Virus record (IMG/VR): IMGVR_UViG_2617270951_000013 | Length of the DNA: 5,747 nt | From: a virus | Taxonomy: Duplodnaviria > Heunggongvirae > Uroviricota > Caudoviricetes | Direction: 5' to 3' (one strand) | Part shown: positions 1-5,652 of the stretch, in pieces | Position numbering within the stretch: position 1 is the first letter of the stretch | Layout of the letters: each line of letters begins with the position of its first letter | Made by a program: the position numbers and the translations under genes | The notes under the pieces: generated by a model | The model's database searches: none | Told to the model about the DNA's origin: nothing | What the model saw: only the letters and a program-made list of their open reading frames with translations

Positions 1-597
1 TTATGCCTGGACAGTATGCATCAGACCGGCCATTTCATCTTTTACTGACTGAACTTGTGGCCCGATAACAACCTGCAGGTTATGTTGATTAAGTTGTACT
101 ACGCCAATTGCCCGATTGTCCTTCAGTGCCTGCACATTAACAAGCGACATATCTTTCACAGACAAACGCAGACGGGTAATGCAGTTATCGAGGCTGACAA
201 TATTGTCGGCACCGCCTAATGCTTCGAGGATTGCAGGAACGTTGTAACCTGATTTACCCGGCGCACCGGCAACGGCTTTTTCGATTGAGCTGGCAACTTC
301 GCTATCGCGCCCCGGGGTTTTCAGATTGAAGCGGGTGATAGCGAAACGGAAGATGACGTAGTAAACGACAAACCAGATTGCCGCCACCACTGGCACCATG
401 TACCACTTGGTTGACAGACCATGCAAAATACCGAACACCACGAAGTCGATGATATTGCCGTCGGTATTACCGATGGTGACGCCGAGCACAGACATGACGG
501 TGAAGCCGAGGCCGGTTAACAGCGCGTGGATGACATACAGAACTGGCGCTACGAACAGGAACAGGAATTCCAGCGGTTCGGTAGTTATAGCGCGGCG
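1..597 (-). pseudogene. 3' fragment of a glucose-family PTS EIICB permease gene (PtsG/MalX-like); roughly the N-terminal 60 percent of the gene is absent
   Basis: Minus-strand frame ending at TAA (3..1) encodes EIIC C-terminal helices (TTEPLEF, FVAPVLYVIHALL, KTPGR) followed by the EIIB phospho-cysteine motif CITRLR. PTS-like sequence stops near 597 and the frame meets a stop at 624..622, leaving about 195 C-terminal codons of what is normally a ~480-530 aa protein. Confidence 0.75.
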
Positions 598-713: not shown

Positions 714-1451
714 TCATTCACTCTCTTTCAAACCAGTTTTAACTGTTTGTGGTTTTGGGTAAGGCTGGACTTTGAATAGCTTTGTGTTAAGGCGTTTTCT
801 GGCTCTCTTGTCCAGAAACCGGATGTAACGAAACTGACGGAATTTATGAACACTGGCTCTGTCGATATTAGCCCGCAGATGTTCACCTCGCTGTCCTCCT
901 CGTTTGATTGCATTCTTGCAAATCTCGTGATACCACTCGCCATCAAGTTCATAGAATGTTGTTTCATGACTGCCTACATAATCAAAATTGCTTGCCTGGT
1001 ACACGACACCAAGACAGCCACAACGCTCATCTGCAAACGACTGAACCCACTGCACCTGCGGATAAAGTTGTCTGATTAGTTTGAGCGCGTAACTGATTGC
1101 CCTTGATTCGGAGTTTCTCGGCATACAGTCATGCAGCCATAACCGGTTAAGCTCCATATATTCGCGGTTCTGCGTGCCAGTTACGACGCGTGCACCATTG
1201 TTTGGATTAAGGGCATAACCCCATTGCATTACGCCAACCAGCTCCCGTTCTGAAAATATGCCCAGATGAAGGTAGGAATTATTTACGAAACGATGGCTGT
1301 AATGTTTATTGACGACGACCAGCCGGGCCAGCCAGCAACTTATTGTCTCAACCCGTAACTCACGGGAGCCATAACCGACGATATTGTCGTTATAGTGAAT
1401 AAGTTCAGGCGTGCTGATGATACGGGATGTAACTTGCTTTCTGTTCCCCAC
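714..1451 (-). CDS. mom: Mom-like DNA modification enzyme (phage Mu Mom family, adenine-modifying anti-restriction function); start codon uncertain
   Basis: Long minus-strand ORF ending at TGA (716..714) whose 5' end overlaps the 3' end of a Com-like zinc-finger gene in another frame, as in Mu com-mom. The only in-frame ATG upstream (1613) would overlap all of com, so the proposed start is GTG 1451..1449, preceded by AAGGA (1466..1462). The track ORF 714..1646 is an over-extension. Confidence 0.6.
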
Positions 1452-1605
1452 GACAGGATTTCCTTGTGTATGTGGGGTGCTCTGTGGCGCTCTGAGATGT
1501 GATTTGATTGAGGGTTTTACAGCGCGGACATTTAACTTCCAGATAACTGAAGCTGGCTCGTGCCAGTAGCTTGTTACAATGTCGGCACCGTATGTTTCGA
1601 TACAT
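1405..1605 (-). CDS. com: Com-like zinc-finger translational activator of mom (66 aa)
   Basis: ATG 1605..1603 preceded by GGAGG (1620..1616). Product [14 protein letters not shown]...VKCPRCK has a CxxC-15 residues-CxxC zinc-finger at residues 7/10/26/29 and an EHPT motif, both recalled from Mu Com. Its stop (1407..1405) lies inside the mom frame. Confidence 0.75.
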
Positions 1606-1648
1606 GGCCGCATAACCTCCTGCTTTGTTGTTGATATCTTTATCACTC

Positions 1649-1861: not shown

Positions 1862-2155
1862 ATGGACAATCATGTAACGACGAGAAATCGAAAAATGATT
1901 GAAAATGCGGAAATCTATAATGATTATTTTTCCGATTATTCAGATGCCTGCAAATACAGTTCGAGTGCGGGAGAGTTCATATGCTTCAACTTTTTTATTA
2001 AATCTTATGTTTTTCCTCCACAGCAAGAAGATGGAGGTGTGCCACCTCCTGAAATCACTTTGCACCGTATAGCCTCCGTCTCAATGATGGAGCAACAGGC
2101 TAATGAGCTGTATAGCATTCTGGGAACGATTCTACAAAAGCGTGAATCGGACTAA
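1862..2155 (+). CDS. Hypothetical 97-aa protein (orphan ORF in AT-rich island), divergent from com-mom
   Basis: ATG 1862 preceded by AAGAGG (1851-1856) with a 5-nt spacer; a 291-nt open frame in markedly AT-rich DNA where stops are frequent; TAA stop at 2153-2155. No recognisable motif. Confidence 0.4.
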   Translation: MDNHVTTRNRKMIENAEIYNDYFSDYSDACKYSSSAGEFICFNFFIKSYVFPPQQEDGGVPPPEITLHRIASVSMMEQQANELYSILGTILQKRESD

Positions 2156-2322: not shown

Positions 2323-2577
2323 TTACATCATGGTACTGTCAGTTCCGGGCTGAGCCGGGTCTGGTTGCTCTGGCTGCGCGTCGGTTTTCGGCTCATTATC
2401 AGCATCACTGGCCGCAACTGCTGGCCCAATAAGTTTTGCCAGCACTTCATCAACGTAAGTGTCGATTTGTGCCTCAAAATCCTTGCGGACCTGCGCTTTC
2501 AGCAACTTATTTACTTCACCGGAATACAGTGCCTGTTTTACCAGGTCTTCAGTGACGGTGCCTTTAATTTCTGGCAT
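2323..2577 (-). CDS. Hypothetical small acidic protein (84 aa) with predicted N-terminal amphipathic helix and Pro/Asp/Glu-rich tail
   Basis: ATG 2577..2575 preceded by a strong SD AAGGAGGA (2590..2583); net acidic composition (about 16 D/E vs 8 K/R); TAA stop 2325..2323. Confidence 0.6.
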   Translation of the reverse strand: MPEIKGTVTEDLVKQALYSGEVNKLLKAQVRKDFEAQIDTYVDEVLAKLIGPAVAASDADNEPKTDAQPEQPDPAQPGTDSTMM

Positions 2578-2612: not shown

Positions 2613-2795
2613 TCAGGGCTGGGTCGGGTCTTTTGGGAGCGGAGTTACCTGCGCTGTTTTACTGAGTTTTTCAGCTGCTGCGTCCTCAATTTTGCGGCGA
2701 ACATAATTTCTGATGGCCTTATAACCACCACTCACCAGATATAACGCACATACTGCCGTGCAGAAATACAATAAAATAAGCTGTAAAAATGTCAT
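2613..2795 (-). CDS. Hypothetical small membrane peptide (60 aa): one N-terminal hydrophobic helix plus a basic/charged tail
   Basis: ATG 2795..2793 just downstream of GGGAGGG (2805..2799); product MTFLQLILLYFCTAVCALYLVSGG... then KAIRNYVRRKIED...; TGA stop 2615..2613. The track ORF starts at a TTG (2807) that lies inside the SD, so the ATG is preferred. Confidence 0.5.
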   Translation of the reverse strand: MTFLQLILLYFCTAVCALYLVSGGYKAIRNYVRRKIEDAAAEKLSKTAQVTPLPKDPTQP

Positions 2796-2810
2796 TATCC
2801 CTCCCAATTA

Positions 2811-2827
2811 TTGACATGGTGTTGACA
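2811..2827 (+). promoter_or_regulatory. Two tandem consensus -35 hexamers (TTGACA at 2811-2816 and 2822-2827); candidate plus-strand promoter with only weak -10 candidates
   Basis: Exact TTGACA twice, 11 bp apart. Downstream -10 candidates are imperfect: TAATAT at 2832-2837 (15-bp spacer from the first hexamer) and TAAAAA at 2846-2851 (18-bp spacer from the second). Confidence 0.25.
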
Positions 2828-2890
2828 CCGGTAATATCTGTTAGGTAAAAAGGTGCACTGCATTTTTTGCTTTGGATATAACGATCTTTT

Positions 2891-2932
2891 TGCCGCCGGT
2901 TTCTTGTTTTCCCTTACCGGCGGCATTTTTTT
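2891..2932 (+). terminator. Strong plus-strand rho-independent terminator
   Basis: Perfect 10-bp GC-rich stem TGCCGCCGGT (2891-2900) / ACCGGCGGCA (2916-2925), 15-nt loop, then T7 (2926-2932). On the minus strand the stem is followed by A-runs, so it is oriented for plus-strand transcripts only. Confidence 0.6.
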
Positions 2933-2939
2933 ATCCTGC

Positions 2940-4994
2940 TTACGCGTTATTCACTTCCACCACGATACTGTCAATCAGTACCGGGTAAGTCGCATTTTTA
3001 GTGATATCGGTCACGCGCAACTTGTCTGCCGTAAACGTGCCGACCGGAGACTGCGACAGCATGAATGGTGTCCCGTCCTTACCATCAATGACCGGCGTCA
3101 CCTCAATACTGTTGTTACCGGCAAAACGGAAGCCCAGCGTATGCCATTCGTTATTAAATGCGCCGAATGACCCCAGCTTCGTGTTCTGCGCCGTGTTTCC
3201 TTTGTGATACATCACGTTAAGGTCTGTGGCATCGCTCTGTACGTAAAACGATGCCAGCAGGTTATGACCGGCATTACCTTCCAGTGTGACGCCCTGAGGA
3301 AGCGAAGAAACCGGCCAGTACAGCGCCAGTGCGTACTGATTAGCCGTAAGCGCGCCATCAAGTTTAAAACGACAGCTGACAAGGCCACCTTTTTCCAGCA
3401 GGTCGGCACCATTACCGGCATCATGCTCAAGGTACCAGGGGGCTCTTCCTGTTTCCTTAGTCATTTTCATTGCCTTACCCCCGCTGGCTCCGGCATCATC
3501 CACGATTTGAGCCTTGCCACCTCCGGCAGCCCAACCCTGTGGTGTCAACCGTCCTTCAGACTCAGATGCCCGGTAAGCAAATAGCGTACTCATCGTCGTG
3601 GTGTCTGCGGGTGGCGTGGACGGTTTTGATGGTGTATCAGGTGACGGCTTCTCATCCGGTGGTGTCACGGTCTGCCCGCGCATCAGTTCAGCCGTGCGCC
3701 CTGCATGGAGCATAATAGCTGAGGCCAGACGGTCTGAAATGACGCCCCTGCGTGCCCATGAGCTGAAATGGCTGTCACGCTGTGTCGAAACAAAACTGCC
3801 CTGGGTTCGGGATGCTGCACCGTAATACCCGACAGCCACAATATCCGGGTCTTCCGCCGGAGCATTCGTTGGCGTGCTCTGTCCATTCTCATCCGTCAGG
3901 AACGGTACAAAGAAAATTTTCTGTGCTTCCTTGCCTTTGTAGCCACCGTATACTGCCTCATATTTATCGGTGCCAGCGTTTTTCCAGTAATACGTGGTAT
4001 CACCGCAAATCCACGGCACCGTGGTGGCATTTCCACTCACGCACTGCGCAGCAAGCGGAGCCAGGTCAGTTCTGAACTGCTGAACCATGGCCGTGAATAA
4101 ACTATTATGCTGCTGGCTTCCTGAGGCAAGGTCTGCCTCTCCCTGCATCCAGACCACAGCCAGAAGTTTGTTTTTCGGGTTTTTCGCCAGCGCGACTTTG
4201 GTGCGGCTTACCAGGTCCTGATACAGAGGTTTACCGGCCCCCCAGCGTGAAGAATCAGCGGAAGCACCGCTGGCCTCACTGAATGAGCCGTCGGCTCCAG
4301 TGGTGAATGCTGACCCGCCACGACAACAGGGCACCAGAAGTATCCCGGCATTCTGTGGGATATAGGGAAGCAGTTTTTTGGCAATATGCAACCCCTGACC
4401 GACAGTCCCGTACTGGCCTTTTGCCAGATCAGCTTTCGGGTGGTTTATCCCGCTCATATCCTGAACATCATGCAGGCAGTGGTCTGCCGGAATGATGTCG
4501 TTGTATGTACACGACGTACCGTTGGGCGTTACCGTACTGCGGCGTGCCAGTTGCTTAATGCGTGGGTCCGGGCGGTCAAACGAATCCGGTAACGGCAGCC
4601 CCTCGCCGTAGGCCATGCCATTTGACTGACCCGCGAGAATGACAACAAAGTAATATTCCGGCTCTGAACTGCTGCCATTCGTGCTACCGGAAGGCCCGGC
4701 GTTATCCGGTGCATTCCAGTCGGAGGGCGTGAGCGTTCCGGCCACGTCAGATGTGATTGGAATGATGCCAGTCACGCCTGAACTGGTGATTTCTGCACTG
4801 GGATTACCGGATACCGGCATTACCCATAATGGCTCTTTCGTGCTGAAGCGGATCACGCAGTCTGCGAAGGTGATCCCCCCTTTATTACCCGAAGGGCGGA
4901 AAGGGCTTTCAATAAATGCCACCGTGCCACCGGCAACCTTGACTGAAAACTCTCCGGGCATGGCGGAGAGCATTTTCCACTTGGAGTCTGACAT
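2940..4994 (-). CDS. 684-aa multidomain esterase: N-terminal ~110-aa domain, SASA/SGNH-type carbohydrate esterase domain (sialate O-acetylesterase-like, comparable to prophage NanS-p), Pro/Ser/Thr-rich linker, C-terminal ~200-aa beta-rich putative lectin domain
   Basis: ATG 4994..4992, TAA 2942..2940. GQSN motif (residues 122-125, nt 4631..4620) and a downstream QGEAD block, which I recall as SASA-family hallmarks; linker TVTPPDEKPSPDTPSKPSTPPADTTT; C-terminal region rich in beta-type residues with no catalytic motifs. Confidence 0.8.
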   Translation of the reverse strand: MSDSKWKMLSAMPGEFSVKVAGGTVAFIESPFRPSGNKGGITFADCVIRFSTKEPLWVMPVSGNPSAEITSSGVTGIIPITSDVAGTLTPSDWNAPDNAGPSGSTNGSSSEPEYYFVVILAGQSNGMAYGEGLPLPDSFDRPDPRIKQLARRSTVTPNGTSCTYNDIIPADHCLHDVQDMSGINHPKADLAKGQYGTVGQGLHIAKKLLPYIPQNAGILLVPCCRGGSAFTTGADGSFSEASGASADSSRWGAGKPLYQDLVSRTKVALAKNPKNKLLAVVWMQGEADLASGSQQHNSLFTAMVQQFRTDLAPLAAQCVSGNATTVPWICGDTTYYWKNAGTDKYEAVYGGYKGKEAQKIFFVPFLTDENGQSTPTNAPAEDPDIVAVGYYGAASRTQGSFVSTQRDSHFSSWARRGVISDRLASAIMLHAGRTAELMRGQTVTPPDEKPSPDTPSKPSTPPADTTTMSTLFAYRASESEGRLTPQGWAAGGGKAQIVDDAGASGGKAMKMTKETGRAPWYLEHDAGNGADLLEKGGLVSCRFKLDGALTANQYALALYWPVSSLPQGVTLEGNAGHNLLASFYVQSDATDLNVMYHKGNTAQNTKLGSFGAFNNEWHTLGFRFAGNNSIEVTPVIDGKDGTPFMLSQSPVGTFTADKLRVTDITKNATYPVLIDSIVVEVNNA

Positions 4995-5069: not shown

Positions 5070-5099
5070 CAAAAAAGCGTCACGGTACTTTTGGTGACG
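5070..5099 (-). terminator. Candidate minus-strand intrinsic terminator overlapping the invertase stop codon
   Basis: 6-bp stem CGTCAC (5078-5083) / GTGACG (5094-5099), 10-nt loop; on the minus-strand RNA it is followed by CUUUUUUG (5077..5070). The stem is short, so confidence is modest. Confidence 0.35.
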
Positions 5100-5652
5100 G
5101 AGCTGGTGAGGCAGGAAAATAACGATAAAGGGGGGAAAGGCCAATATCAAATATCAGTGCGATTTGTTTACGGGACTCGCCATTAGCCAGCAAACGGGCG
5201 ATTTGCTCCCGCTCTTTCTCTGTCAGTTTCTGAGGTCTGCCGCCATGACGCCCCTGAGCACGGGCAGCAGCAAGACCCGCGCGTGTACGTTCAATAATGA
5301 GTTCCCGCTCCATTTCCGCCAGCGCGCCCATTATATGGAAAAAGAAACGTCCCATGGGAGTGGATGTATCAATATTGTCCGTAATGCTGCGGAAGTTAAC
5401 GCCGCGTTGCCGGAGTTCTTCTGTTAAAAGGACAAGGTGCTGCATACTGCGTCCAAGGCGATCCAGTTTCCAGACCAGCAGGGTATCCCCTGGCCGGAGT
5501 CGCTTTAATGCGCGTTTAAGTCCGGGACGCTCCCTTGTCTTACCGCTTATTCTGTCTTCGAAAAACAGCTCACATCCTGCACATTCCAGCGCATTTCTTT
5601 GTAGCGCCGTATTCTGGTCATTTGTTGACACCCTGATATACCCAATCAGCAT
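5080..5652 (-). CDS. Serine-recombinase DNA invertase of the Gin/Pin/Cin/Hin family (190 aa)
   Basis: Product begins MLIGYIRVSTNDQ (catalytic Ser motif) and carries GYIRVS, LDRLGRS and a C-terminal HTH-like region; ATG 5652..5650 preceded by AAGGA with a 6-nt spacer; TGA stop 5082..5080. Confidence 0.92.
   Translation of the reverse strand: MLIGYIRVSTNDQNTALQRNALECAGCELFFEDRISGKTRERPGLKRALKRLRPGDTLLVWKLDRLGRSMQHLVLLTEELRQRGVNFRSITDNIDTSTPMGRFFFHIMGALAEMERELIIERTRAGLAAARAQGRHGGRPQKLTEKEREQIARLLANGESRKQIALIFDIGLSPLYRYFPASPAPSPKVP

Follow-up and report, generated by a model that had tools for sequence, protein, structure and literature searches.

A NanS-p-type esterase-lectin gene in a Mu-like prophage of Escherichia coli, with an N-terminal module apparently specific to Mu-like phages

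The 5,747-nucleotide (nt) stretch of viral DNA recorded as IMGVR_UViG_2617270951_000013 (hereafter the window, to whose positions all coordinates refer unless a locus is named) raises the question of why a Mu-like transposable prophage of Escherichia coli carries, between its tail-fiber invertase gene and its com-mom genes, an esterase gene of the NanS-p type, and what the distinct N-terminus of the encoded protein contributes. NanS-p has so far been treated as a trait of Shiga toxin (Stx) and other lambdoid phages by which pathogenic E. coli can feed on the sialic acids of mucus. The overall explanation that we favor, with somewhat better than even confidence, is that a NanS-p payload resides in this Mu-like prophage together with a Mu-specific N-terminal module (N-module) that would serve as its addressing part. 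The gene, its parts and a tract shared with a lambdoid locus have the following positions.

2940-4994, minus strand: Mu-type nanS-p gene (684 aa, ATG start), encoding the N-module, SASA esterase, linker and lectin-like C-terminal domain
4665-4994, minus strand: N-module (aa 1-110), a beta domain at approximately aa 5-80 and a Ser/Gly/Pro linker at aa 83-110
3675-4664, minus strand: SASA/SGNH catalytic core (aa 111-440), by Pfam SASA and 3PT5
3591-3674, minus strand: Pro/Thr/Ser-rich linker (aa 441-468), TVTPPDEKPSPDTPSKPSTPPADTTT, read from the sequence
2943-3590, minus strand: lectin-like jelly-roll domain (aa 469-684, 216 aa), by DUF6645 and 6YP6
2661-4662: tract 87.6% identical in DNA to the lambdoid DUF1737-type nanS-p locus L005 (blastn)

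With respect to family and enzymology, the gene is ordinary. A preliminary description of this DNA had read the product as a GQSN/QGEAD carbohydrate esterase core, a Pro/Thr/Ser linker and a beta-rich C-terminal domain of about 200 aa, and had related it to prophage NanS-p. All of this was borne out: GQSN (aa 122-125) and QGEAD (aa 284-288) lie in a single 684-aa open reading frame (ORF), the linker occupies approximately aa 441-468, and the 216-aa C-terminal domain matches the NanS-p jelly-roll. The whole ORF matched PHROG 143 (E 6e-297), and Pfam detected SASA at aa 117-312 (E 1.5e-13) and DUF6645 at aa 533-650 (E 5.7e-69). The same description had proposed profile searches for each domain and a check of the SGNH/SASA fold; besides the Pfam SASA match, residues 110-428 aligned with E. 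coli NanS/YjhS, whose crystal structure is known (3PT5; E 1.8e-117, 58% identity over 315 aa), and residues 469-683 aligned with the crystallized C-terminal domain of NanS-p (6YP6; E 1.2e-98). Because a full-length AlphaFold2 (AF2) model built from a 36-sequence alignment was unusable (mean predicted local distance difference test [pLDDT] score of 34), the fold assignments for the core and the C-terminal domain rest on these matches to solved structures. The interdomain linker is weakly conserved (24-29% identity to relatives).

All four NanS-type SGNH blocks are present, namely GQSN (122-125), GGS (226-228), QGE (284-286) and RDSH (406-409). The same blocks are listed for NanS and NanS-p in PMC10462455, where the last one reads RSSH or RASH. 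The predicted nucleophile is S124, G226/G227 and Q284-G285-E286 are the predicted oxyanion-hole blocks, and H409 lies in RDSH. Four aromatic residues of vb_24B_21 (Y510, Y515, Y540 and F611), proposed as the sugar site of the jelly-roll and taken with their positions from PMC10462455, are retained here as Y554, Y559, Y584 and F654. The lectin-like fold of the C-terminal domain goes back to Franke et al. 2020, as cited in passages of PMC10462455 and PMC8065619. The payload (aa 111-684) is 62-70% identical to NanS-p of phage 933W (L0105) and up to about 90% identical to alleles of the DUF1737 type. NanS-p alleles from EDL933 and O104:H4 are active on 5-N-acetyl-9-O-acetylneuraminic acid (Neu5,9Ac2) and on O-acetylated mucin glycans (reviewed in PMC8065619). 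Given that the homology, the catalytic blocks and the sugar-site aromatics all match active NanS-p, we assign the same chemistry with high confidence; the gene very probably encodes a sialate O-acetylesterase of the NanS-p family. RefSeq labels these proteins either “sialate O-acetylesterase” or “DUF6645 domain-containing protein”; PADLOC and NCBIfam returned nothing meaningful for the esterase or for the products of three neighboring ORFs (DUF1378, DUF826 and orfX, see below).

Judging from the characterized homologues, the enzyme would remove 9-O-acetyl groups from free and mucin-bound sialic acids, converting Neu5,9Ac2 to Neu5Ac, and the jelly-roll domain would keep it on the glycan. The protein has no signal peptide, and its N-terminus is hydrophilic; lacking such a peptide, it would act outside the cell only after phage-induced lysis.

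The preliminary description had also suggested that both the domain combination and the location might be undescribed. The first part did not stand: 933W NanS-p consists of DUF1737, SASA and DUF6645, so that the SASA-DUF6645 pair is the family norm and no novelty. The second part held, in that no paper describing the Mu-like location was found: a literature search retrieved none on Mu-like nanS-p or on DUF6645, with key subscription papers, such as Saile et al. 2016 (PMC5038053), lying outside that search. What is new is the phage-type-specific exchange of the N-terminus, the strong constraint on it, and the traffic of payloads between Mu-like and lambdoid phages. The N-terminal swap, the downstream gene pair shared with lambdoid phages, the prophage end at 586 and an ORF on the opposite strand all go beyond that first reading.

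The N-terminal part is where the protein differs from 933W NanS-p. Whereas this region of L0105 matches DUF1737 (E 4.3e-18), aa 1-108 of the window protein matched no Pfam family at E <= 1; residues 1-110 share 19% identity with the N-terminus of 933W NanS-p, and homology begins only at about residue 111, with the motif PEYYF. For the N-module, AF2 with a seven-sequence alignment predicted an all-beta fold with strands at aa 7-10, 14-29, 41-44, 47-52, 56-71 and 74-79, in contrast to the helix and three strands of DUF1737. The pLDDT was 70-87 for aa 10-80; it fell below 50 over aa 83-111, a segment that, on this model, we read as a disordered tether. Fold searches with the N-module yielded generic small-barrel matches only.

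The distribution of the N-module is strikingly narrow. A pattern scan of IMG/VR based on an N-module alignment gave 34 loci, and in 34/34 the module is fused to the SASA and C-terminal domains. Wherever the upstream flank is available, the gene follows Mu-type baseplate, fiber, assembly-protein and usually invertase genes, and the loci normally continue with DUF1378, DUF826 and com, the last being followed by either mom or a cytosine methylase. Together with four further loci (L001, L002, L004 and L040), all 38 are Mu-like, and the arrangement is unchanged in diverged lineages with 57-62% N-module identity. Apart from fragments of this same gene, a HMMER search of 1.84 billion representative proteins recovered a single relative, from Salmonella (P0006), in which an N-module of 30% identity is fused to the SASA core in a Mu-like prophage, downstream of the invertase and after two small ORFs. 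A word-indexed search for remote N-module homologues returned fragments only, and a scan of genome contigs returned none, the species representative there probably lacking the prophage. Among 5,426 complete E. coli genomes, 32 encode the N-module, in up to three copies each; payload-like DNA is present in at least 1,249 genomes.

Selection on the three domains was compared as the ratio of nonsynonymous to synonymous substitution rates (dN/dS) among alleles with dS of 0.18-0.39. The ratio was 0.03-0.04 for the N-core; the esterase gave 0.09-0.14 and the C-terminal domain 0.12-0.17. The N-module is thus the most strongly constrained part of the protein, and at these dS values the low ratio shows that the conservation of the N-core is not mere recency. 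Being under purifying selection, the ORF is not a chance ORF. These values also bear on the view that the gene is a decaying, non-functional remnant carried passively in a defective prophage. Such decay does occur among relatives: at L001, no more than 10 kb of the prophage is left, many of its genes are pseudogenes and its invertase is frameshifted, and fragmentary and frameshifted esterase copies exist (P0002-P0005). The window ORF, however, is intact with all catalytic and sugar-site residues conserved, dN/dS stays within 0.03-0.17 across all three domains, and intact copies are found in complete Mu-like prophages as well as in lineages with only 57-62% (in Salmonella, 30%) identity in the N-module. 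We regard the selection analysis as effectively refuting this reading, to which we attach almost no probability. Taken together, the N-module is probably a functional, phage-type-specific module.

Several partial Salmonella proteins (P0128, P0130, P0133, P0136 and P0138) consist of a NanS-like core preceded by other N-termini, which in every case meet it at the PEYY[FY]V junction through a Pro/Thr-rich linker. Two of these N-termini, in P0128 and P0138, are distantly related to the Mu-type beta domain; those of P0130, P0133 and P0136 are short unrelated leaders. N-terminal modularity seems to be general in this family.

The payload behaves differently from the N-module. The tract shared with L005, a locus with the gene order Q, nanS-p, DUF1378, DUF826, holin, lysozyme and Rz1, has its 5' breakpoint exactly at codon 111 (PEYYF), spans the stop codon and the intergenic region, and ends inside the DUF1378 gene. 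Among the Mu-type proteins compared, the 82-aa N-core is 95-100% identical and the payloads are 79-99.8% identical to each other; for each Mu-type payload, the closest DUF1737-type (lambdoid-type) allele is 86-95% identical, which approaches or exceeds the median identity between Mu-type payloads (81-90%). This pattern argues for repeated exchange of the payload between the two phage types, with the N-module staying with the Mu backbone. On these sequence comparisons, we consider it highly likely that the gene belongs to a cassette whose payload has been swapped between Mu-like and lambdoid prophages by homologous recombination.

In two IMG/VR contigs (L006, 754-5136, and L011, 3545-12691), a divergent DUF1378 comes after the Mu-type esterase, and next to it lie a holin and a lysozyme of lambdoid type that are 89-100% identical to those of L005; in L011, mom, com, orfX and DUF826 recur in inverted orientation about 5 kb downstream. 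These loci look as if a Mu-like and a lambdoid prophage had recombined, or undergone inversion, across the esterase genes that they share.

The remainder of the window consists of the following features, which place the esterase gene in its element.

1-585, minus strand: 3' part of a phosphotransferase system (PTS) EIICB gene (Pfam PTS_EIIB) of the E. coli chromosome
586-667: right end of the prophage (boundary at 586), with three TTTGATAC(C/T) repeats
714-1451, minus strand: mom, DNA modification, the last prophage gene (Pfam Mom, E 1.6e-77), overlapping com
1405-1605, minus strand: com, translational activator of mom (Zn_ribbon_Com, E 1.3e-12; RefSeq coordinates via L001)
1649-1673: perfect palindrome with a 9-bp stem and two GATC sites, AATCGATCGACAAAAACGATCGATT, just upstream of com
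1895-2155, plus strand: 86-aa ORF (orfX; RefSeq hypothetical protein WP_000571916.1), in a stretch of 33-39% G+C between DUF826 and com
2323-2577, minus strand: DUF826 small acidic protein, 84 aa (Pfam, E 6.4e-16), third gene of the trio that begins with the esterase
2613-2795, minus strand: DUF1378 small protein, 60 aa, with a hydrophobic N-terminal stretch (Pfam, E 1.2e-31; RefSeq via L001)
5080-5652, minus strand: Gin-type serine DNA invertase of the tail-fiber G-segment (Resolvase, E 1.7e-51, and HTH_7; PHROG 125, DNA invertase)

The element that carries the gene is a transposable, Mu-like E. coli prophage. The window itself contains gin, com, mom and a prophage end, and the remaining Mu genes are found in complete relatives. 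One of these, L040 (strain FORC_069; NZ_CP023061.1, 3,330,300-3,369,200), has genes for a repressor, MuA, MuB, Gam, Mor, lysis, a portal, protease, gpT head protein, sheath, tube, tape measure, baseplate, fiber and assembly protein; at its right end, gin is followed by the esterase, DUF1378, DUF826, com and mom as in the window. On the minus strand, the order of transcription in the window is invertase, esterase, DUF1378, DUF826, com and mom, with an intact invertase gene directly upstream of the esterase gene. This agrees with the invertase and com-mom context, in place of stx and lysis genes, that the preliminary description had proposed. Other complete genomes align with the window only from 583/586 on, and the chromosomal site differs in each. 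Positions 586-686 are 93% identical to the annotated terminus of Mu_JNE082796, an “inserted Mu-like phage.” A repeat search and direct reading identified the three-copy TTTGATAC(C/T) family at this end, and these repeats are likely to be transposase-binding sites. The palindrome upstream of com resembles the Dam/OxyR-controlled region of the Mu mom promoter.

The insertion interrupts the PTS EIICB gene in the window; in the relatives, it lies in ypdB (L001, strain DLI.5a) and in a fimbrial usher gene (L040). A longer candidate for mom, a 310-aa ORF at 714-1646 (minus strand), was rejected as an artefact of an in-frame upstream GTG, the annotated gene being 714-1451. Positions 1438-1714 are 92% identical to L002, a locus in which mom is replaced by a C-5 cytosine DNA methyltransferase gene (PF00145, E 2e-42; L002, 11420-12472), as it is in L021, L032 and L033. 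The mom-less relatives with this methyltransferase, which include the element inserted in O157 Stx phages, retain com along with the region upstream of it, so that one DNA modification enzyme has been exchanged for another behind the same regulator. The invertase gene is absent from approximately one quarter of the related prophages (L004 [9696-10001], L010, L011, L013, L015, L018 and L024-L026). In these invertase-less relatives, the esterase gene lies 305 nt from the tail-fiber assembly gene, in divergent orientation. In L001 (24498-25069), the invertase is annotated as frameshifted, and in L016 and L019 the tblastn match to it falls into separate pieces. For orfX, no Pfam, PHROG, PADLOC or NCBIfam match was obtained; since an ORF is present, absent or replaced at this site among related prophages, 1895-2155 looks like a variable cargo slot.

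The genes that accompany the esterase are also shared with lambdoid phages. DUF1378 follows nanS-p in 933W, in L005 and in every complete Mu-type locus, and in 933W, DUF1378- and DUF826-like ORFs lie between nanS-p and S, the trio as a whole being located between Q/stx and the holin gene in lambdoid phages. The esterase-DUF1378-DUF826 trio is therefore common to two unrelated phage types, and within it a difference in kind is confined to the first 110 codons. In the Mu-like phages, DUF1378 and DUF826 remain next to the esterase, with the lysis genes about 25 kb away; this retention suggests that the two small proteins are tied functionally to the esterase and not to the lysis genes that they border in Stx phages. 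A literature search found no paper on the function of DUF1378 or DUF826.

The position of the gene directly after the tail-fiber, tail-fiber-assembly and invertase genes brings up the possibility of a tail-associated receptor-modifying enzyme, held on the baseplate or tail fibers by the N-module and removing O-acetyl groups from O-antigen or from capsule such as O-acetylated polysialic acid, either as an aid to adsorption or to modify the surface of the lysogen. A constant N-terminus with an exchangeable C-terminal payload is the pattern of tailspikes and tail fibers, and SGNH deacetylase tailspikes such as gp63.1 of phage G7C are known. There is also a weak match to a PHROG “tail protein” (E 1.2e-6), and a minor tail protein of an Arthrobacter phage contains a SASA segment; a role of NanS-p in attachment through de-O-acetylation of lipopolysaccharide has been raised (PMC8065619). 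We nevertheless consider a tail-borne enzyme acting on bacterial glycans unlikely, given that the catalytic domain is close to sialate-specific enzymes: the core shares 58% identity with chromosomal NanS, and with lambdoid NanS-p, which belongs to a sialic acid-active family, the identity reaches 90%. Moreover, the protein has no trimeric coiled-coil or beta-helix, its tether is predicted to be disordered, and the one homologue located on a particle, in phage phi24B, is on the capsid and not on the tail.

That homologue, phi24B gp84, is a NanS-p that was found by cryo-electron microscopy and proteomics to be an abundant capsid-decorating protein; its DUF1737 domain binds capsid hexons as a hexamer, and proteolysis at the linkers follows release (bioRxiv 10.64898/2026.04.10.717836). 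By analogy with DUF1737, the Mu-type N-module could be a phage-type-specific addressing part. That it docks the esterase-lectin on the Mu-like virion, whether on capsid or tail, is a tentative proposal that we hold with less than even confidence, although a docking adaptor is the most economical reading of a small, tethered N-terminal domain strictly linked to a different virion type.

Several observations weigh against virion docking. The Mu-type esterase gene is located after gin and is not part of the canonical late operons for Mu structural proteins. In a phage collection of 50,697 records, the N-module was detected in no isolated phage; the two records that contain it are Stx-phage records with an inserted Mu-like prophage. 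Promoter and terminator scans gave counts not above shuffled expectation and no convincing promoter or terminator. The phage-type specificity could merely reflect where the fusion arose. Finally, capsid binding has been shown in one phage only, by a preprint, and DUF1737-type NanS-p is encoded in many lambdoid prophages.

Q-dependent late transcription of the esterase gene is impossible here, as the gene lies between gin and com and not between Q/stx and holin S. A weak -35/-10 match is located inside the 3' end of the invertase gene (5150-5122), no terminator was predicted between gin and the esterase, and the variants without gin retain about 150 nt of homology upstream of the esterase. A repeat search of the regions upstream of the esterase and of com found no common motif.

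The chief competitor of docking is a soluble, nutrient-releasing moron whose product never enters the particle but is freed by lysis and helps surviving sibling lysogens by turning Neu5,9Ac2 into usable Neu5Ac; the N-module would then serve folding, oligomerization, stability or additional glycan binding. This corresponds to the established view of NanS-p, under which the enzyme de-O-acetylates mucin O-glycans and lysogens are able to grow on Neu5,9Ac2 (PMC8065619). The location outside the head and tail operons, near a prophage end flanked by variable cargo (orfX, and mom swapped for a cytosine methylase in some relatives), fits it, as does the absence of the cassette from prototype Mu, which is typical of accessory cargo, and a small beta-barrel would be compatible with a binding or oligomerization domain. 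A soluble moron leaves unexplained, however, why the N-module is strictly linked to one phage type while the payload moves freely and why it is under stronger constraint than the catalytic domain, and the only NanS-p so far studied in a virion decorates the particle as a structural protein, held by its N-terminal domain. We accordingly judge this explanation possible but well short of probable.

Returning to the favored explanation, a Mu-specific addressing module on a NanS-p payload, we can extend it to the family as a whole, though we are doubtful of this extension: the N-terminal modules of NanS-p might be interchangeable virion-docking adaptors, with DUF1737 for phi24B-like capsids and the beta domain for Mu-like myovirus particles. 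Recombination at the PEYY junction would then pass one esterase-lectin payload among temperate phages of enteric bacteria that are otherwise unrelated, and DUF1378 and DUF826 would be accessory factors of the display system. Were this so, a virion-displayed esterase and lectin would be a general phage-autonomous trait for coping with O-acetylated mucus, for instance through adherence or penetration, beyond a nutrient moron.

Apart from this extension, the observations change the picture of NanS-p as a trait of Stx and lambdoid phages. Mu-like prophages of E. coli and Salmonella have the payload in common with these phages through recent recombination, with only the N-module being specific to the phage type. 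In combination with the capsid-anchor role found for DUF1737, this amounts to a natural domain-swap experiment that bears on whether these enzymes are virion components for use in mucus or serve the lysogen. Genome stability is a further concern, since the esterase genes that unrelated prophages share are substrates for recombination, and apparently inversion, between them.

Comparison with known systems locates the novelty. The right end of prototype Mu has the invertase, the overlapping com and mom, the GATC palindrome upstream of com, the terminal repeats and the varied insertion sites that are found here; unlike Mu, the window carries the esterase, DUF1378, DUF826 and the opposite-strand ORF between gin and com. 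In Mu, gin and com are separated by 94 nt, against approximately 3.5 kb in the window, so that roughly 3.5 kb is extra relative to Mu. In the description of phage SfMu, a 1.5-kb gin-mom region was targeted by PCR, a size that suggests that SfMu lacks the cassette.

The SGNH deacetylase tailspikes, such as G7C gp63.1, would follow the same design if they, too, are viewed as a virion-borne esterase with a constant attachment part and an exchangeable enzyme part. They differ in that the catalytic domain of the window protein is of the NanS sialate type and is not accompanied by trimerization or beta-helix elements. No sequence similarity to G7C-type tailspikes turned up in our searches, none of which was a comparison aimed at them. 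Chromosomal NanS (YjhS, 3PT5) shares the GQSN, GGS, QGE and xSH blocks of the catalytic domain, but this product of the nanCMS operon is a single-domain protein of about 326 aa that begins with an export signal and lacks the N-module, the linker and the lectin domain.

The capsid-decorating phi24B gp84 likewise combines a small N-terminal module, a tether, an esterase and a lectin domain, and its N-terminal module likewise does not travel with the payload. Its anchor domain, however, is of another fold and family. Mu-like capsids differ from the T=9 capsid of phi24B.

The lambdoid NanS-p proteins are the nearest relatives overall, with the same SASA/SGNH core blocks, linker, DUF6645 domain with four aromatic residues, absence of a signal peptide, and DUF1378 and DUF826 downstream. 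In place of their DUF1737 (alpha+beta, about 53 aa), the window protein has an unrelated all-beta domain of about 80 aa with a longer tether, and its host is a Mu-like transposable myovirus in which the gene lies between gin and com and not, as in L003 and L005, between Q/stx and holin S. The window gene therefore shares most of the features that define NanS-p and departs from them in two, the DUF1737 N-terminus and the lambdoid location between Q/stx and the holin gene.

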